Shown piece after piece: positions 6,720 to 15,502 of a stretch of 64,000 bases of DNA (the first letter of the stretch is position 1; the number at the start of each line of letters is the position of its first letter). A program made the translations under genes and the position numbers. Origin of the DNA: an uncultured virus (IMG/VR IMGVR_UViG_3300031758_000011) (lineage: Duplodnaviria > Heunggongvirae > Uroviricota > Caudoviricetes); the IMG/VR virus record IMGVR_UViG_3300031758_000011, positions 1-64,000 of that record. The stretch is one strand, 5' to 3'. The notes beneath the pieces were generated by a model. The model worked only from the letters and a program-made list of their open reading frames with translations. It ran no database searches and was not told where the DNA came from.

Positions 6720-7115
6720 ATGAAGGTAATTAAAATAACGTTAGAGCAATTTAATAGATTAATTTTAAAGGAAGCTGAAAATAAAAAAGTGGAATTTAAT
6801 TTTAATGTTGAAATGATTTTAGCTATGGGTAAAATCTTAGGATTAAACTTAAAAAATTACAATCTAGAAATAGCAAATAATGAATTAAAAAAGGAATCAA
6901 CTTATACTAAAATAAAATCTATTTTGGATGATAAAGAAGACTTGAATAAAATAATTGAAGACTTGAAAAACAAAGGTTTAATTAGCGCTGATAAAAAATT
7001 TATCTATGATGCTGAGAAGATTGTAACTAATTTTAATTCAAATGCTAAAGAAAACGGTTTTGATTGTAAACTTAAACATTCTGAACTGATTAATAATATT
7101 TTAAAAAATAAGTAA
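6720..7115 (+). CDS. Hypothetical protein, possible internal virion protein
   Basis: 131-aa ORF. Its N-terminal IKITLEQFNRL motif is shared with the ORF at 10532. Confidence 0.65.
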   Translation: MKVIKITLEQFNRLILKEAENKKVEFNFNVEMILAMGKILGLNLKNYNLEIANNELKKESTYTKIKSILDDKEDLNKIIEDLKNKGLISADKKFIYDAEKIVTNFNSNAKENGFDCKLKHSELINNILKNK

Positions 7116-7208: not shown

Positions 7209-7697
7209 ATGGCTGATTTATTGATGAAAATGCCCTTACCATACGAACCTAAGAAAAAGAATCGTTGGTTATTAACTTTCCCAGCAGATTTAGGTATCCA
7301 ACAATGGTGGTTATCAACTGCTTCTAGACCTTCAATCACACAGAACGAAGTTGAGATTCCTTTCTTAAATACTTCAACATGGGTTATTGGTCGTTTTACA
7401 TGGGAATCGATTGACGTTACATTCCGTGACCCAATTGGTCCTTCAGCAGCTCAAGCTATTATGGAATGGGTTCGTTTACACTCAGAATCTATTACTGGTC
7501 GTCAAGGTTATGCTGCTGGTTACAAACGTCCAGTTGACTTAGAATTACTTGACCCAACTGGGGTTGTTATCGAGAAATGGTTATTAGATGGGACAATGTT
7601 AACAAACGTATCATTTGGTGACTTAGGGATGGATGATGACGGTATCGCTGAGATTACTGCAACATTACGTTTTGACAGAGCAATCTTATTATTCTGA
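7209..7697 (+). CDS. Tail tube protein (T4 gp19-like)
   Basis: 162 aa after the sheath, with EPKKKNRW, GRFTWESIDVTFRD and EITATLRFDRA, a typical tube pattern. Confidence 0.9.
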   Translation: MADLLMKMPLPYEPKKKNRWLLTFPADLGIQQWWLSTASRPSITQNEVEIPFLNTSTWVIGRFTWESIDVTFRDPIGPSAAQAIMEWVRLHSESITGRQGYAAGYKRPVDLELLDPTGVVIEKWLLDGTMLTNVSFGDLGMDDDGIAEITATLRFDRAILLF

Positions 7698-7794: not shown

Positions 7795-8682
7795 ATGGTA
7801 ATATGTAAAGAATGTGAACGTGAGTTTGATAATTTGGATTCATTGAGAAGACATCGAACCCAAAAACATGGTGTTAATGCTGAACAAACATATATTGATT
7901 ATATTTTAAGTGGGGTTAAACCAACATGTAAATGTGGTTGTGGTGAATCAGTTAAGTTTTTATCTATTGAAAAAGGTTTTGTTGATTACATTAGAGGACA
8001 TGTTGCTAGGGTTAATAATAATTGGGGACACAATAAAGAAGTATTAAGAAAATCACATGAAACACAAAAAAAGATGCATGCATCTGGTGATTTAAAAATA
8101 TGGAATAAAGGTTTAACTATTGATGATTCAAGGGTGAAAGATAATATTGATAAGGTAATGTCAAACCAAAACCGTGGTATTAATATTTCAAAAAAACTTA
8201 AAGGTGTCCCAAAATCTCAAGAACATAAATTAAAAATACAAGAAGCTTCAGAATTAAGATGGTCTAATCCAGACGAAAGAGAAAAACAATCACATAGGTT
8301 AATAGAAAGATTGATTAAAAATAATTATAAAAATAAAAAGACTAAATTAGAAGTTACATTTCAAACATTTCTAGAAATTTTAGGTTTAATTGAAAAAAAA
8401 GATTTTACATACCAAAAACAAGTGTCATCAGCTTTATTTGATTTTTATATACACAACTCTAATTTATTAATTGAGGTTGATGGTGATTTTCACCATTGTA
8501 ATCCTAATAGTATCCATAAAATACCGACTTTTCCAATACAAATAAAAACAGTCGGTAATGATTATAGAAAAAATTTGATAGCTGAAGAGAAGGGATTCAA
8601 ATTATTAAGATTTTGGGAAAGTGATATTAAAAATAAACCAGAAGAAATTATGAGTATTTTAAGAAAAGAATTAGGTTTATGA
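7795..8682 (+). mobile_element. Free-standing homing endonuclease (C2H2 zinc finger, CxCGC, NUMOD3-like, Vsr/DUF559 nuclease)
   Basis: CKECEREF..LRRH..QKH; CKCGCG; KGVPKSQEHKLKI; catalytic-type LLIEVDGDFHH..LLRFWESDI. It is inserted in the tail operon with its own promoter. Confidence 0.8.
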
Positions 8683-8835: not shown

Positions 8836-8836
8836 T

Positions 8837-8864
8837 AAAAAACCACTTTAACGAGTGGTTTTTT
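8837..8864 (+). terminator. Intrinsic terminator, possibly bidirectional
   Basis: AAAAAACCACT-TTAACG-AGTGGTTTTTT. Confidence 0.85.
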
Positions 8865-8950
8865 AATTTTACATAGTTTCTATTTACAAAAAAACTTATT
8901 AACATATATTTATTTTTAAAGTTATAACGAAATAAATAAGTTTTTCAAAT

Positions 8951-10207
8951 ATGGATAAAAAACCAAATGTTTTTCCTCAAAGAGAACAACCTCAAAACAA
9001 TTTAACTGACGCTGAAAGAATAGCTAATTTTGAACAAGAAAAAGCTATGGCGACTCACGAAATTTATGAAAACGCTAAAAGTTCTGATGAATTAAGTTAT
9101 TCACATAAAAACGCAGTTGAAATGATGATGCAGCGTACCAGAGAACAAATTCAAAGAAAAAATAAACAAGGTATGGTTGTTGAACCACAACTGGCTGAAG
9201 ACGCACCTAAAAAAGTAGATGCTAATCAAGATTTGATACGTAAAAGAGATGAACAGTTAAGATTAAATCAACAGCAAACTCAAAACTATCAAAAAATGTA
9301 TGAACAATCATACAATAATGTAAATAATAACAATAATATGGAACAACAAAATAGAGTACCAAATACTCCACCACCAACTCCGCCATCAGTGCCGCCAGTT
9401 AATAACACATATGAGAATTATGGTCAAAACCCTAACAATATTGACCCATACATTTATGAGTTAAGTCAACCTAACTATAACGCACCATTTGACGTTATTC
9501 CTTTACCATCTAGAGGTAAGTTATATAGAAGTAAAAAAGCTAACATTAAAATAGCTTATATGACAACTGCTGATGAAAACATTTTATCATCACCAAACTT
9601 ATTACAAAGTGGTCAATTCTTAGAAATTTTAATCAACAGAAAAATATTGGAACCAGAAATCAGATACAAAGATTTAACTATTGGTGATAGAAACGCTATT
9701 ATGTTATGGCTTAGAGCAACAGCATATGGTGAAATGTATCCAGTAACTCTATTAGATGAATTAGATGAACCATTTGAAACTGAAATAAATTTAAATGAAC
9801 TTAAAGAAATTGAGTTAACTGCTGAACCAGATGAGAATGGTGAGTTTACATTTGAATTACCAGTAACAAAAAATGTAATTAAATTCAAAGTTTTAACTTG
9901 TGGTGACGTTGACGAACTAGAAAGAATTTTAGAAAAAGAAAAAGAAAATAAAGTATTGGTAAACAATGCGTCAACTTATAAATTAGAAAGACAAATTGTT
10001 GAAATTAATGGGAATAGAGATAAAAGATATATAAAAGATTTTGCTTCATCTATGAGAATTGCTGACGCTAAAGCATTTAATGAATATGTTGAATCAATTG
10101 AAAGTGGCATTGACCTAAACATCAATGTTCAGACCCCAGGGGGAGGGTCTATCGCCACCTTTCTTCCCCTTAGTGTCACATTTTTTTGGCCTAACATCAG
10201 ACTTTAA
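8951..10207 (+). CDS. Baseplate hub / tail assembly chaperone (T4 gp26-like) with a Q/N/P-rich N-terminal extension
   Basis: The C-terminal region FDVIPLPSRGKLY..IAYMTTADENIL..GDRNAIMLWLRATAYG..FFWP is the gp26-like family pattern. The gene lies between the tube and tape measure genes. Confidence 0.7.
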   Translation: MDKKPNVFPQREQPQNNLTDAERIANFEQEKAMATHEIYENAKSSDELSYSHKNAVEMMMQRTREQIQRKNKQGMVVEPQLAEDAPKKVDANQDLIRKRDEQLRLNQQQTQNYQKMYEQSYNNVNNNNNMEQQNRVPNTPPPTPPSVPPVNNTYENYGQNPNNIDPYIYELSQPNYNAPFDVIPLPSRGKLYRSKKANIKIAYMTTADENILSSPNLLQSGQFLEILINRKILEPEIRYKDLTIGDRNAIMLWLRATAYGEMYPVTLLDELDEPFETEINLNELKEIELTAEPDENGEFTFELPVTKNVIKFKVLTCGDVDELERILEKEKENKVLVNNASTYKLERQIVEINGNRDKRYIKDFASSMRIADAKAFNEYVESIESGIDLNINVQTPGGGSIATFLPLSVTFFWPNIRL

Positions 10208-10472
10208 GCCTATTTTATTAGAGGAGATTTATATATGTACGCAATATTTGAAAAACGTCACTTATAATGACGTTTTATCAATGCCTACATATGAAAGAAG
10301 ATTCTTTTTAAATATGTTAATAAAGGAGACCAAAGAAAAAGAAGAACGGATTGAAGAGATGAAGGAGAAGGAAACCAAATCTAAAACGACTGGAAAAGGT
10401 AGTAGAGAAACTAGAGTTTCTGGAGAAGCATTAAAAACACAAATGAAAAATGGTATGATACCATTACAATAA
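10125..10472 (+). CDS. gp51/gpT-like tail assembly chaperone C-terminal ORF, probably expressed by +1 frameshift from the upstream gene
   Basis: It overlaps the upstream ORF in the +1 frame across a T7 run (10181-10187). EEIY..TYNDVLSMPTYERRFFL resembles small tail-chaperone extensions. Confidence 0.65.
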   Translation: MFRPQGEGLSPPFFPLVSHFFGLTSDFKPILLEEIYICTQYLKNVTYNDVLSMPTYERRFFLNMLIKETKEKEERIEEMKEKETKSKTTGKGSRETRVSGEALKTQMKNGMIPLQ

Positions 10473-10473
10473 G

Positions 10474-10497
10474 TCCCCATTTTAATGGGGATTTTTT
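10474..10497 (+). terminator. Intrinsic terminator
   Basis: TCCCCAT-TTTA-ATGGGGA followed by T6. Confidence 0.85.
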
Positions 10498-10531: not shown

Positions 10532-12157
10532 ATGGATAAAAAGATAGTCATAACCGAATCACAGTTTAATAGACTTAAAAATTTAATTAAAGAGCAATTA
10601 TTGTTGGAAGATAAGTTATTCAACCAAATTTCTGCTAGATTGCGAAACGTGACAATAAAAGATGAAAATGATGCAATGGAATTTTTATCAAAATCAGAAA
10701 ATAAACCAGTGTTTGATTATATTCAAAACGCTGTAAATAATTCATTAAACGCTAGAGTACCAAAACAAAAAGCTCAATACATCAAAGACCTTAAAACTAA
10801 ATTAAAAGCGGTTTTTAAAATGCTACAGAAACCAGAAAATGAAGTTGACGCTAGTATGGCAAATCTTTTGAATGGTTACGCTAAATCTAAAAAAGTTAAT
10901 AGTTTTGATGCTATTGTTGAAATGTTAAAAACTTCAAATACATCTGGTAACCAAGCGTCAAAAGCTAAATCAATTGATGATTTATTAGATAAACCAATGG
11001 GTCCATCTAATCAGCAAAAACAAGAACCTAATCAAACTAATGCGGTTGCTGCTGATAACGAAAATAAAGAAAGTGTTAACATTAATCAAATGATTTATGA
11101 TTTCGTTGATACTTTAAATGGGTTAAAGGAAAATGATGTTTTAACTATTAAGTTACCTAGAATGGATACTATGAAATTAACGTGTATTAATAATACATCT
11201 AAATATAGTATTTTTTTCAAACTAGCTGATGACGTAGATACAGCAACAGAAAAAATTGAATTACCTAAAATACCAGAAAAATATAAATTCGATGAAAATA
11301 GCCCAGTACCAAATTTTGAAGTCCCATCAATTGAATATATTAACGATGAAGGCACGATAACTAAAAAAAGTGAATTAATCAAAGGTATATACGAATGGGA
11401 TATTGATGAAGCTGGTGGTGAAGAGCAAAGTGATGAAGAACAAAACGGTGAAGAACTTACCACAGATGAAATTGAAAACGACATAGATGACCCTAATGTA
11501 AGTCTTGAAAATTTCATGGATGATATTATGAGTGATGAATCTAATGAAACTAAAAGTAATGCTTTAGATTTATATAGGTTAATAAAAAAAGATAAAGATT
11601 TTATGGAGGTCCAAGGTGGTAAAAACCCTTCATTTCTGAAATTATTATTTGCTAATTTAACTGGTAAAAAGATTGAACCTAGAAGAGGTAATATACCAGT
11701 GTTGAATAGTATTAGCAAAGTTTTTGATGATAGGATAACTAATAAGTTAGGTGAAAATTTTATTGAGAATAAAACAGTATTTTTCAAACCCTTAGAAACA
11801 ATAGAATTACCTTATGTTCAAATGGAGTGGGACGCTACTGATAGAGTGCGTAAACCTATTAACAAAATATTTGAATTAAAAGCTAATTCTGAGTATACAT
11901 TTAGAGACGCTGTAAAAGTTAAACAATTTTCAATTGATTCATTAAAATATGGAGAATACAGAGTATTGGAAAATGCTTATAATAAATTTAGAATCATTGT
12001 CAAAGAGAAATCAACCCAACCTCATACATTTAATTGTGATGTGTTTAAATATTATACAGATGCAGCAAATAATCAAAAGGTTTCAAAGAAAACAAATGTT
12101 TTAATTGAATTTTTAGATTCTGATGGTTATAAAATAAACAAAGTTAATACCAATTAA
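10532..12157 (+). CDS. Hypothetical protein, probably virion-associated
   Basis: 541 aa with an N-terminal KKIVITESQFNRL motif and an acidic central linker, directly upstream of the tape measure gene. Confidence 0.65.
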   Translation: MDKKIVITESQFNRLKNLIKEQLLLEDKLFNQISARLRNVTIKDENDAMEFLSKSENKPVFDYIQNAVNNSLNARVPKQKAQYIKDLKTKLKAVFKMLQKPENEVDASMANLLNGYAKSKKVNSFDAIVEMLKTSNTSGNQASKAKSIDDLLDKPMGPSNQQKQEPNQTNAVAADNENKESVNINQMIYDFVDTLNGLKENDVLTIKLPRMDTMKLTCINNTSKYSIFFKLADDVDTATEKIELPKIPEKYKFDENSPVPNFEVPSIEYINDEGTITKKSELIKGIYEWDIDEAGGEEQSDEEQNGEELTTDEIENDIDDPNVSLENFMDDIMSDESNETKSNALDLYRLIKKDKDFMEVQGGKNPSFLKLLFANLTGKKIEPRRGNIPVLNSISKVFDDRITNKLGENFIENKTVFFKPLETIELPYVQMEWDATDRVRKPINKIFELKANSEYTFRDAVKVKQFSIDSLKYGEYRVLENAYNKFRIIVKEKSTQPHTFNCDVFKYYTDAANNQKVSKKTNVLIEFLDSDGYKINKVNTN

Positions 12158-12159
12158 TA

Positions 12160-14895
12160 ATGGCTAAAAGTAGAAAACAAATAGAAGAAGAAGCTAGGAT
12201 AGTTTTGCAAATGCTTGAGAAACAAGTTAATTTGCAAAATAGTGTTAATAGTAGTTATGATAAATATATTGAAGCGGTAAAGAAATATAAAGATATTCAA
12301 GCTACTTTAACCAAATCTTTAGAACTAGAAAGAAAAACTCAAGCTAAAGTTGATAAAGAAATTGCTGATAGAAAAAGAGGTATTATTAACTTAACTGATG
12401 AAGAATTAGAAAAAGAAAAAATCAAATTAGAAATTCTAAAGAAACAGAATGTTCAATTAGATTTACAGCGTGAAATGTATCATGATACATTAAAAGAAGT
12501 TAAAGCTATAAACCTTGCGTTAACTAATTCTGTTTTACCTACTTTAAAAGCCATGGAAAAAATTCCAGGACTTTTTAAAGGTGCGTATAACAGTTTAAAA
12601 GGGTTAGGGTTATTTGAAATGGATAAAGCGATGAAGCAATCAGCTTTATCAATGGGTATCCTAAGTAAAGAATCTGCTGGTTTTAGAGGTTCTATAGTTT
12701 CTGCTGCTAAACAAACAGCTATTATTGGTGTTGGTGTTAAAGAATTATCACAAATACAAGCACAATATAGTGAAGGTGTAGGTACAACAGCTTTAATGTC
12801 TGAAAAGACGTTAAAATCGTTAGGAGAGATGGCTGTGGCTACTGGGTTAGGTGTTGAAGGTACATCTCAAATGGCTATGGATATGCGTAACCAAAACATA
12901 GCAGCTGAAAGTACTGTTAAATTTGTTCAACAAACGATGAACGATTCGCATAAAATGGGTGTTGATGCAACTAAAGTAGTTAAACTAATTTCTAAGAATA
13001 TAAAAATGCTAAACAAATACAATTTCAAAGATGGAGTTAAAGGTTTAGCTAAAATGGCAGAAACAATAACTAAATTAGGTGTTGATATGGAATTTGCGGC
13101 TGGTTTTGCTGATAAACTTTGGGATGTTGAAGGCGCTGTTAACATGTCAGCTCAATTACAAGTTATGGGTGGTGCGTGGGCTCAAATGGCTGACCCATTC
13201 CACTTGATGTATATGGCTCGTAATGATATGGCTGGATTGACTGAAGAGATTGGTAAGGCTGCTGAACAATCGGTTATATTCAACAAGAAAACTGGTCAAT
13301 TTGATATGTCAGCAAAAGAGATGCATAGATTAAAAATCATTGCTGAACAAACTGGTATCGCTTATGATGATTTAGTTACGGCTGGTAAGAATGCTAAGAA
13401 ATTCAGCATGATTAAATCACAAGTTAATTTTGATTTTGGTGGTGATAAAGACCTTAAAGAATATGTTACTAACAAATCCTTCATAGATGAAAAAGGTAAC
13501 GCTAAAATAGTAATTAATGGGGAGACTAAGTTATTGAAGACTTTATCTCAACAAGATAAAAATATTTTGAAAACACAAATGTCTGAACAAGCGTCATTAA
13601 GAGCTAGAGCAGAAGAAGCTCAATCTTTTGATGATACTTTATCAAACTTGATGATGCAATTAAAAATATTTTTATTACCTTTAATAACTAAACTTAGTGA
13701 CCCTAAAACTGGTCTGGTATCAAAATTACAAAAATTTTCAGATAGTTTAAATAAAAAAGGTGGTTTTGGACAAACAATTGAAAAAGTAGCCGAATGGTTT
13801 GGTAACATTGTTAATGCTTTTGGTGAATTTATGGTTGAACATCCAGTGTTGGTTGCAACAATCGCTGGTTTCACCAAATCAATACCATTATTGATTGGTG
13901 CTTTTAAATTGTTTGGTGGTCTTTTTAACGCTGCTAAATGGTTTTTAAATGGTATTGCCTTATCTAAAGGGTTCATGTTGGGAACTGGTGGAGGAATGGG
14001 TATGGGTATGGGTCGTGGTCCTATAGGTGGCGGTATGGCTAATTCAATGTTTAGAATGGGTGGCGGAGCTGCTTATGGTACACCTGGAGGTATGATTGGA
14101 CCAGCTTTACCTAAACCAGGGTTTGGTGCTAATTTTAAAGCTGGTCTTGGTTCAGCTGGTGCTATTAGTGGTGGTTTATTAGCTGGTGGTATTGCTGGTT
14201 TTGGTGAATACGGTGAACAAAAAGAAAAAGGTAAAGGTGCTGGTGAGGCTATCGGTAGAGGTGTATTAAAAGGATTAGGAGCTGGTGCTGGTGCGTGGGG
14301 TGGTGCGGCTGCTGGTGCTGCGCTTGGTACTATGTTATTACCAGGTATTGGTACTATAGTTGGTGGTTTAATAGGTGGTATGGCTGGGGGTTCTATTGGT
14401 GGTACAGTAGGTGATTTAGATACTTATGGTGTTAATGACGCTATATTTACTAACCCTATAAATGATGGGTTTAGTATTAGTAAGCCTAGTAAAATGATGT
14501 CTAGAAAATTTGGTACTAATTATTCAAAAGGTAAAGGTATATTTAATAATGGTACTATAACACCGATACATAACGCTGATAAAGTAAAAGCTATAATGGC
14601 TAGCAAACCTGGAGGTGGAATTGATAGATATGAACGAGAAATGTTTAATAAATCAACAAATACGCAACAACAAGTCGTATCAACTTCAAATAGACATACA
14701 TTTGACCCTATTAGCGGTAGTCTTACAGTTGAAATTCCAGGACTAAATAATAAATCGTTTACTGTTGAAGAAAAAGAACAATTATTTGAAGAAATAAGAG
14801 AAAAATTGAAAAGAAGAGTAACTGAGGACGTTACTTATACTAACAATAAAACTAAAAATGGTGGAAAATTAAAACCTATGCCAGCTAAATCTTAA
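12160..14895 (+). CDS. Tape measure protein
   Basis: 911 aa, helical and Ala/Lys/Met-rich, with hydrophobic segments and a glycine-zipper region (GAGAGAWGGAAAGAALG..IGTIVGGLIGG). Canonical position after the chaperone genes. Confidence 0.8.
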   Translation: MAKSRKQIEEEARIVLQMLEKQVNLQNSVNSSYDKYIEAVKKYKDIQATLTKSLELERKTQAKVDKEIADRKRGIINLTDEELEKEKIKLEILKKQNVQLDLQREMYHDTLKEVKAINLALTNSVLPTLKAMEKIPGLFKGAYNSLKGLGLFEMDKAMKQSALSMGILSKESAGFRGSIVSAAKQTAIIGVGVKELSQIQAQYSEGVGTTALMSEKTLKSLGEMAVATGLGVEGTSQMAMDMRNQNIAAESTVKFVQQTMNDSHKMGVDATKVVKLISKNIKMLNKYNFKDGVKGLAKMAETITKLGVDMEFAAGFADKLWDVEGAVNMSAQLQVMGGAWAQMADPFHLMYMARNDMAGLTEEIGKAAEQSVIFNKKTGQFDMSAKEMHRLKIIAEQTGIAYDDLVTAGKNAKKFSMIKSQVNFDFGGDKDLKEYVTNKSFIDEKGNAKIVINGETKLLKTLSQQDKNILKTQMSEQASLRARAEEAQSFDDTLSNLMMQLKIFLLPLITKLSDPKTGLVSKLQKFSDSLNKKGGFGQTIEKVAEWFGNIVNAFGEFMVEHPVLVATIAGFTKSIPLLIGAFKLFGGLFNAAKWFLNGIALSKGFMLGTGGGMGMGMGRGPIGGGMANSMFRMGGGAAYGTPGGMIGPALPKPGFGANFKAGLGSAGAISGGLLAGGIAGFGEYGEQKEKGKGAGEAIGRGVLKGLGAGAGAWGGAAAGAALGTMLLPGIGTIVGGLIGGMAGGSIGGTVGDLDTYGVNDAIFTNPINDGFSISKPSKMMSRKFGTNYSKGKGIFNNGTITPIHNADKVKAIMASKPGGGIDRYEREMFNKSTNTQQQVVSTSNRHTFDPISGSLTVEIPGLNNKSFTVEEKEQLFEEIREKLKRRVTEDVTYTNNKTKNGGKLKPMPAKS

Positions 14896-15010: not shown

Positions 15011-15502
15011 ATGAATTTTAAAAAAAATCAATCATTATTTAATTTATTTGATTCTTTATTTTCTGATAAAGAAAAATATGAATCATTTTATAATCAAATA
15101 ACAAATAAATTAACACCTTCATTGGGTTCAACAAAAACTGAAAGTGGCGTTAATGAAGATGGTTCAAAGTGGTATAAAACAACTTTTACATCAAATGATG
15201 GTTCTTATACATCTTCATCATATGTTTCTTCAACTAATTTTAATGATAATTGGTATTCTACATCAACAAATAACGTTGAAACACCTTCTGAGTTACATAC
15301 ACTTCAAAATAAATTAGAAGAAGCTATTTCAACTCAAAACTTTGAAGATGCTGTTAAATACAGAGATTTAATTAAAAATTATGAAAAAGTTTCTGAAAAG
15401 TTAACTACTTTAAATTCTCAATTAGAAGAAGCTATTTCAACTCAAAACTTTGAAGAAGCTATTAAATTAAGAGATTCAATTAAAAAGTTGGAAACTAAAT
15501 AA
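15011..15502 (+). CDS. Protein with two tandem UVR (UvrB/UvrC) coiled-coil motifs
   Basis: LQNKLEEAISTQNFEDAVKYRDLIK and LNSQLEEAISTQNFEEAIKLRDSIK match the UVR consensus L..AI..E.FE.AA..RD.I. Confidence 0.8.
   Translation: MNFKKNQSLFNLFDSLFSDKEKYESFYNQITNKLTPSLGSTKTESGVNEDGSKWYKTTFTSNDGSYTSSSYVSSTNFNDNWYSTSTNNVETPSELHTLQNKLEEAISTQNFEDAVKYRDLIKNYEKVSEKLTTLNSQLEEAISTQNFEEAIKLRDSIKKLETK
15312..15456 (+). repeat. Perfect 37-bp direct repeat inside the UVR gene
   Basis: AATTAGAAGAAGCTATTTCAACTCAAAACTTTGAAGA at 15312-15348 and 15420-15456, 108 nt apart. Confidence 0.9.

Follow-up and report, generated by a model that had tools for sequence, protein, structure and literature searches.

The tail-chaperone proteins of phage P2 are named E and E+E′. 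In G/GT-type chaperone systems the fusion is a low, fixed share of the product, binds the tape measure and tube proteins and does not occur in virions. In the lambda G/GT scheme a short ORF and an overlapping extension ORF are found between the tube and tape-measure genes, and tail-chaperone frameshifts are −1 in lambda (gpG/gpGT) and P2 and −2 in Mu, as described in a passage of PMC5009743. The locus reported here shares with these systems the overlapping ORFs between tube and tape measure, a conserved slippery site and an extension without a start. It differs from them in a predicted single-tRNA +1 re-pairing on UUU followed by a pyrimidine (UUU-Y), instead of a −1 heptamer, and in a 5′ hairpin and two candidate sites that are 21 nt apart.

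The locus also resembles T4 gp26/gp51, with matches to PF12322 and phrog_150, an extension that is like phrog_634 in part of the family, and a predicted pair of a short and a long chaperone, but T4 uses two genes, whereas here a single gene and a +1 direction are predicted. Frameshifting has reportedly been described by Vladimirov and coworkers for several T4-like groups. It was in that work (Vladimirov, Gautam and Davidson, Virology 2022, 566:9; via PMC12846349 and PMC10885494) that the two T4 proteins were assigned to the tail assembly chaperones, as TAC-N/TAC-NC, and a passage citing it mentions poly-T −1 signals in TAC-N genes of T4-like phages. The original prediction for this locus had proposed to bring T4 gp26/gp51-like genes into the G/GT scheme; a gp26-like domain was indeed found, and a gp51-C-like domain is supported at the family level, but the placing itself is not new (Vladimirov et al., 2022).

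A +1 tail-chaperone shift was proposed for HSTV-2 (passage in PMC5009743) and for HF1-group haloviruses at TTT-CGC (passage in PMC7230728). Like the present case, these are proposed +1 shifts on UUU-C in a myovirus tail chaperone, and clades related to the one studied here carry TTT-CGN. In contrast, the hosts are archaeal, the shift is a prediction only, the window has UUU-CUU, and the passage in PMC7230728 mentions neither a hairpin nor a second site. UUU_CGN is the +1 motif of influenza PA-X and amalgaviruses (passage in PMC5052127). The shared feature is a P-site UUU re-pairing on UUC, which is predicted for the in-frame UUU followed by C at positions 10160–10163 of the window, but PA-X and the amalgaviruses depend on eukaryotic ribosomes, and the A-site codon in the window is CUU, not a CGN Arg codon. 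The prfB CUU-UGA +1 shift is stimulated by a 5′ duplex and works without SD pairing in Bacteroidia (passages in PMC10798248 and PMC6321510). The +1 direction and, as a candidate, the 5′ duplex stimulation are common to both, whereas the window has no A-site stop, and its SD-like GGRGG lies 13–16 nt upstream in a hairpin loop. A search of open-licence literature listings retrieved no report of a +1 site, tandem sites or a hairpin for this chaperone family. Earlier publications already cover both the tail-chaperone role of gp26/gp51 and a +1 shift on UUU-C in a chaperone gene; added here are a likely upstream site, a covarying 5′ hairpin and a frameshift site position that changes across clades.

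Results

Layout of the Chaperone Locus

The window, i.e., the whole stretch of DNA that was analyzed, covers the initial 64 kb of a viral record (G000) of 126.5 kb with 30% GC, which was judged to be about 36% complete. The features are compiled in Table 1. Sheath, tube and tape-measure genes flank the chaperone locus. The predicted position between the tube and tape-measure genes, which is typical for G/GT-type loci, was found, but with one inserted ORF on each side, an endonuclease-like ORF on the tube side and a 541-aa ORF on the tape-measure side; in the cultured Flavobacterium phage immuto the chaperone locus sits directly between a tube-sized gene and the tape measure.

Table 1. Positions of the chaperone locus features and of the neighboring tail genes in the window.
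Feature	Positions	Strand	Remarks
Tail tube gene (context)	7209..7697	+	phrog_4542, E 1.5e-26
Short form (TAC-N, 418 aa) of the gp26-like tail assembly chaperone	8951..10207	+	phrog_150, E 3.6e-8; PF12322, 27.7 bits (cut-off 24.5)
+1-frame ATG, not conserved, unlikely start	10125..10127	+	
6-bp mRNA hairpin (10131-10136 with 10145-10150), G-rich 8-nt loop, predicted stimulator	10131..10150	+	ends 9 nt 5′ of site A
Site A, UUU-CUU in frame at codons 404-405; probable main site of the +1 shift, with P-site re-pairing from UUU to UUC	10160..10165	+	
Dual-coding overlap: 0 frame, end of short form; +1 frame, stop-free	10164..10207	+	
Site B, TTT TTT TGG CCT (T7 run 10181-10187), family-wide site of the original prediction, possible second shift site	10181..10192	+	
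Extension in the +1 frame (94 codons and a stop), with a gp51-C-terminal-like TAC-C domain and, after it, a charged, poorly conserved tail	10188..10472	+	phrog_634 in 9/39 relatives, window copy excepted
Intrinsic-terminator-like hairpin closing the unit	10471..10494	+	
Tape measure gene (context)	12160..14895	+	phrog_167, E 3.1e-17

The sequence features on which the original prediction was based were confirmed. The 3′ end of the short ORF reads ACA TTT TTT TGG CCT and then AAC ATC AGA CTT TAA. The +1 frame across the T7 run encodes FFGLT and is free of stops from 10125 to the stop at 10472, directly followed by the terminator-like hairpin; its ATG at 10125 lies 83 nt within the upstream gene, and the next one is at 10281. 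The N-terminal extension of the short form is of low complexity, and the conserved domain begins at about residue 170.

An SD-like motif precedes only 3 of the 87 long ORFs of the genome, and the start regions are A-rich. In this respect the genome resembles Bacteroidia (passage in PMC10798248), which suggests a Bacteroidia-like host. ARAGORN detected nine tRNAs in the record (G000 C1), including Trp(CCA); an anticodon-CUA tRNA at 103137–103208, outside the window, is a possible amber suppressor. The ORF between the tube and chaperone genes (7795–8682) is homing-endonuclease-like, with matches to HNH PHROGs and DUF559 and an N-terminal zinc finger, and a terminator-like hairpin (8836–8865) lies downstream of it. 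The 541-aa ORF (10532–12157) in the gap between the chaperone locus and the tape measure gene matched neither Pfam nor PHROG; its start is similar to that of a 131-aa ORF (6720–7115) between the sheath and tube genes. The 163-aa protein encoded directly after the tape-measure gene (15011–15502) contains two UvrB/UvrC (UVR) motifs. Within the extension, an SD-like GAGGAG together with a 10-codon 0-frame mini-ORF (10221–10267) is probably a by-product of Leu-Glu-Glu codons.

Relationship of the Products to T4 gp26 and gp51

The conserved domain of the chaperone matched PF12322 above the cut-off as well as phrog_150, and T4 gp26 and gp51 match the same families. Across the family, phrog_634, which covers residues 147–246 of T4 gp51, matched nine of the 39 extensions, with a best E of 4.9e-8; weak matches to DUF6760 were found for 10 of the 39. 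The extension of the window itself matched no PHROG, phrog_634 included, and DUF6760 only weakly. Because of the family-level matches to PF12322, phrog_150 and phrog_634, the short form plus extension appears to have the gp26-to-gp51 architecture. Direct profile comparisons with the single T4 gp26 and gp51 proteins were not significant (E 0.015–0.15; 0.015 for the gp51-type C-terminal domain), and a tblastn search with the extension against annotated phages gave no match at E 1. An AlphaFold model of the conserved domain had low confidence (pLDDT 55); with this model Foldseek found no PDB match at E 0.001, while the search against BFVD retrieved T4-like "baseplate hub" proteins and a weak match named TAC (E 0.029).

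In record G000, about 36% complete, a single chaperone match was found, and not two separate genes like T4 gp26 and gp51. Among the best 150 profile matches no in-frame fused form was evident, and the inspected sequences have no room for an extension after the main or C-terminal match. Four relatives (P0057, P0059, P0061 and P0066) have an internal insertion and a different C-terminus without FFWP.

Conservation of the T7 Junction

The sequence TTTTTTTGGCCT was present in 79 of 79 related loci that contain the junction (80 related loci minus one with an incomplete junction). The predicted invariance was verified with 101 distinct junctions of close relatives, which had been selected by their amino-acid motif with codons left free, and all of which keep TTT-TTT-TGG-CCT. 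A codon-free scan yielded 95 distinct matches. An automatic homology filter accepted 68 of them, each with TTT TTT TGG CCT, and 14 further homologues had the same sequence; the remaining 13 were unrelated pattern matches and were dropped. The third positions of codons −9, −8, −6, −2, −1 and +1 (with Trp as 0) did not change at all on a 58-taxon tree, while a median of 12 changes (minimum 2) was found at 30 conserved degenerate sites and 5–10 changes at three Phe sites. The conservation of the junction thus exceeds chance, and, as in G/GT-type loci, a conserved slippery sequence lies in the overlap.

A T directly 5′ of the T7 run was never found in the window clade (58/58 loci without it) and occurred in only 1 of 110 loci of distant clades, where 53 were expected; a U at this position would permit a −1 slip. 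The locus does not fit the canonical −1 direction on an X XXY YYZ heptamer, and a stop that follows CCT ends the −1 frame in 101/101 junctions. Cultured relatives at about 30% identity share the layout, namely Mel-JY01 with T7-GGCCT and Flavobacterium phage immuto with TTT CTT TGG. TAC and TTC occur in the family as A-site variants at site B, and a tRNA-Trp is encoded by the phage genome; both weaken the proposal that a waiting Trp codon causes the shift. The distant site-B clades (L164–L341) have GGG, a rare codon at this place, as Gly codon −5 in 46/83 loci, i.e., a short G run 5 nt before UUU, which is possibly SD-like.

Lack of a Conserved Start Codon

As is characteristic for the G/GT type, the two ORFs overlap in different frames, and the second has no conserved start of its own. 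Among the 101 close relatives, an upstream +1 ATG like that at 10125 was found in only seven, the first downstream +1 ATG wanders from +2 to +31, and in 25 there is no ATG, GTG or TTG at all before the conserved motif.

Direction of the Shift Across the Family

Five additional scans widened the family sample to 274 distinct loci; 11 + 5 incomplete loci and L518, which has a broken ORF, had been left out before counting. The extension is in the +1 frame in 271 of the 274 loci. An in-frame UUU with a pyrimidine after it is kept throughout, at varying positions. The control rate of UUU-Y windows was 9%; this control is lenient, because the real window contains Phe residues that are conserved for the protein. 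Loci with TTC TTT TGG have a +1 stop three codons upstream, so that only a P-site UUU slipping by +1 is allowed. The +1 frame is never open for less than 11 codons in a superclade of 150 loci, in which upstream sites predominate, while a +1 stop lies within 8 codons in 31 of the 121 loci of the other superclade, which would force the shift to occur at T7 there.

Taken over all possible sites, +1 ribosomal frameshifting is very probable on the basis of these patterns, and in this respect the original prediction of a programmed +1 rather than −2 shift without a conserved independent start is supported. Two relatives, L324 and L337, are natural reversions: behind the stop of the chaperone gene, their extension gene starts at an ATG of its own and has a longer N-terminus, and the site lacks an in-frame UUU. 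L517 is the only family member with a −1-frame extension, on a T run longer than 7. A FastTree tree of 274 sequences, calculated from 216 columns after removal of the junction columns and rooted at the midpoint, did not group the site-A clades with good support, and therefore no order of events is claimed.

An Upstream Candidate Site

The original prediction had named as a check whether conservation of the +1 frame starts exactly at FFGL. This fails in the window clade, where the constraint begins about seven codons further upstream and stops are excluded from the +1 frame from codon −11 on. Numbers of +1 stops that were expected from synonymous codon use were compared with the observed numbers in the close relatives. 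At junctions −24, −22, −20 and −12 the seen/expected values were 84/79, 19/24, 17/23 and 28/25, respectively, but 0/71 at −6 and 0/33 at −4, i.e., 0 versus 104 expected stops upstream of the T run. The site A codons are TTT in 100/101 and CTT in 99/101 close relatives, and their third positions never change on the tree. None of 58 loci has a T as the last letter of the codon before site A, with 22 expected, which is the same rule as for T7 in the distant clades.

A sister clade has TTT-CTT in 33/33 loci and T7 in only 2/33. Its +1 stops were 0/26 and 0/10 (seen/expected) just after site A and 14/10 just before it. Its B region varies between TTT TTA, TTA TTT and TTT TTC, and a U precedes in 28/28 at codon −2; because all 33 loci keep some in-frame UUU plus pyrimidine at B, this site is degraded but not proven to be dead. 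In two further clades TTT-C is located at codon −12, in 30/31 loci of one and, as TTT CGC, in 11/11 of the other, and their +1 frame is open from there; a CGN A-site codon was found in 19/31 and 11/11 loci of two related clades, compared with CUU in the window clade. The loci L465–L544 and L624 have TTT-CGN at codon −12, 10 codons upstream of T7, together with a stable predicted 5′ structure.

Site A is probably used as a shift site, as judged from these comparisons, and a shift at T7 with a waiting Trp codon is not supported in the form originally proposed, as the open +1 frame from codon −11, the invariant UUU-CUU at 10160 and the 5′ hairpin make a better candidate. Partial +1-stop depletion (13/26, 19/45) was also found in clades that use B alone, so that preferences at the RNA level can give the appearance of dual coding. 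In the window clade the shift may take place mainly or solely at site B, because T7-GGCCT is equally frozen (101/101) and never preceded by T (58/58). Sites A and B resemble a 21-nt tandem repeat (10160–10180 versus 10181–10201), with FFxLTS-like residues appearing twice in the +1 frame of most relatives. A −1-frame stop is located three codons after the first UUU of each site in 96/101 and 101/101 relatives, with about 20 expected for each.

A Covarying Hairpin Upstream of Site A

Covariation of the hairpin was analyzed with 47 loci (about half of 99 from three site-A clades, plus the window). In this sample 93.6% of 282 cells were paired, with 35 double-sided changes; none of 500 shuffles paired as well, and slid controls reached 28–57%. 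Unaided, RNAalifold recovered four of the hairpin pairs, and the stem is inverted in one clade. The hairpin was more stable than synonymous controls in 56/58, 32/33 and 8/8 loci of the three site-A clades, and it ends 9 nt before UUU in 41/58, 17/33 and 6/8 loci. It is weak, at about −9 kcal/mol. The 56-nt segment of the window was not unusually stable compared with dinucleotide shuffles (z 0.06), and in its best fold the G-rich stretch pairs with site A and does not form the hairpin stem.

In 70S and yeast reporters, +1 shifting is increased by hairpins located upstream, which act by proximity, and attenuation of −1 shifting by upstream hairpins drops when the spacing is increased from 2 to 5 nt and beyond (passages in PMC6321510 and PMC3639245). 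The proximity effect would favor site A over site B, which is 30 nt away from the hairpin end, although the 9 nt to site A exceed the 2–5 nt range tested according to the passage in PMC3639245 and the stem is weak.

Other elements were considered. A pairing of TTTCTTC with a downstream GAAGAAA, proposed by RNAalifold, was rejected, as it had no double-sided change and is explained by Glu-Glu codons. A pseudoknot using CUUCC was demoted, because the sister clade keeps the loop purines without having CUUCC. SD stimulation is unlikely in view of the GGRGG spacer of 13–16 nt and the rarity of SD-like motifs in the genome.

Discussion

Taken together, the locus probably yields chaperones of 418 aa and 506 aa by a +1 ribosomal frameshift that would occur mostly at UUU-CUU (10160–10165), aided by the hairpin and with the U7 run as a second entry. 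Most ribosomes would complete the short form. In a minority, which hold peptidyl-tRNA-Phe on UUU (codon 404) while CUU occupies the A site, the tRNA would change its pairing to UUC and translation would proceed in the +1 frame, and the hairpin is predicted to refold 9 nt behind site A and thereby to aid the shift. The invariant U7 run 21 nt downstream would offer another entry to the same frame. A shift at A or at B results in the same length, so that the predicted sizes of 418 and about 506 aa hold for either +1 site, and only residues 405–410 differ. From the sequence comparisons we infer the ribosomal shift itself, its site and frequency, and its stimulation by the hairpin. In lambda G/GT, the short chaperone covers the tape measure protein in many copies, and a few copies of the long one connect it with the tube protein. 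By analogy, the products of this locus would function as tape-measure chaperones (passages on lambda in PMC5009743).

The evidence on the place of the shift can be read differently. A +1 shift at the U7 run only, with a P-site UUU re-pairing on UUU, UUU or UGG in the A site, and with the upstream conservation serving as an RNA signal, would account for the invariance of T7-GGCCT at this family-wide site and for the distant loci with early +1 stops that force the shift there. The signal might for example be a pseudoknot between the loop GGRGG and CUUCC that ends 13 nt before the U7 run, and the loop-CUUCC pairing can be formed in 98%. However, the second helix of this pseudoknot is without double-sided change, the tRNA-Trp is phage-encoded, and the complete avoidance of +1 stops from −8/−6 in five clades with an upstream UUU-C would stay unexplained. 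In addition, the sister clade retains site A and the hairpin while it reads CTT-AGA, without CUUCC, and mostly lacks T7. A shift confined to U7 is therefore judged to be rather unlikely. The joint freezing of both sites and the hairpin in the window clade could also be due to a short bypass, in which peptidyl-tRNA-Phe leaves the UUU at 10160 and, driven by the 5′ hairpin, lands on a +1-frame UUU of the U7 run, resulting in a product about seven residues shorter. Such an event would resemble the bypassing of T4 gene 60, but there is no stop codon at the take-off site, and a hop would not need a stop-free +1 frame in between, yet 0 of 104 expected stops were present there, which makes it very improbable.

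Concerning the nature of the event, re-pairing of Phe-tRNA is possible at +1 in 271/271 loci and at −2 in the window and in 217/271, T7 is present in 191/271, and a U is avoided 5′ of UUU, which together favor a +1 ribosomal event over a −2 shift or polymerase slippage. A Mu-like −2 shift on the U run (phage Mu uses −2; passage in PMC5009743) would produce 507 aa with three Phe. It is hardly to be expected, since re-pairing is impossible at site A and in 54/271 loci, including the TTC-TTT-TGG loci, in which the +1 frame opens only three codons upstream. Transcriptional slippage, i.e., the omission of one U by the RNA polymerase on the T7 run, would fit the loci with T7. Nevertheless, the longest T run is not longer than 5 in 49/271 loci, among them that of immuto, runs of exactly T7 occur 107 times in the genome, and the motif tracks the reading frame and not the run length; slippage is thus given very little credence. 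Separate translation of the second ORF from ATG 10125, a GTG or TTG, or ATG 10281 has precedents in L324 and L337 with their ATG-initiated separate genes, and a +1 GTG lies within the hairpin loop in 64/101 relatives. But in 28/101 the +1 frame is interrupted after the position of this GTG by a stop at junction −12, and together with the scarcity and variable position of start codons reported above this renders a separate start extremely improbable.

Beyond the preferred +1 shift mostly at site A, a wider interpretation can be offered only tentatively. The locus may be a natural case of a +1 shift on a bacterial ribosome by a refolding 5′ hairpin, in a phage that does not depend on SD, with two working tandem sites. 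UUU-Y may have migrated along the overlap (codons −2/−1, −9 and −12), with old sites decaying once a new one takes over.

For the assembly of tails, the putative chaperone frameshift reveals no new principle. The locus belongs to a large family of aquatic myophages, for two clades of which the scans estimated about 1,100 and about 3,200 matching stretches. The family includes the cultured Flavobacterium phage immuto and Microcystis phage Mel-JY01, in the records of which the locus is split into separate genes, so that the putative long chaperone is hidden. Stimulation of +1 shifting by a 5′ hairpin was found only for engineered reporters in the literature searched, and this locus is a natural candidate that is supported by covariation. 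The clades of the family represent a natural set of variants for studying how UUU-Y could slip forward when neither a stop codon nor an SD element is present.
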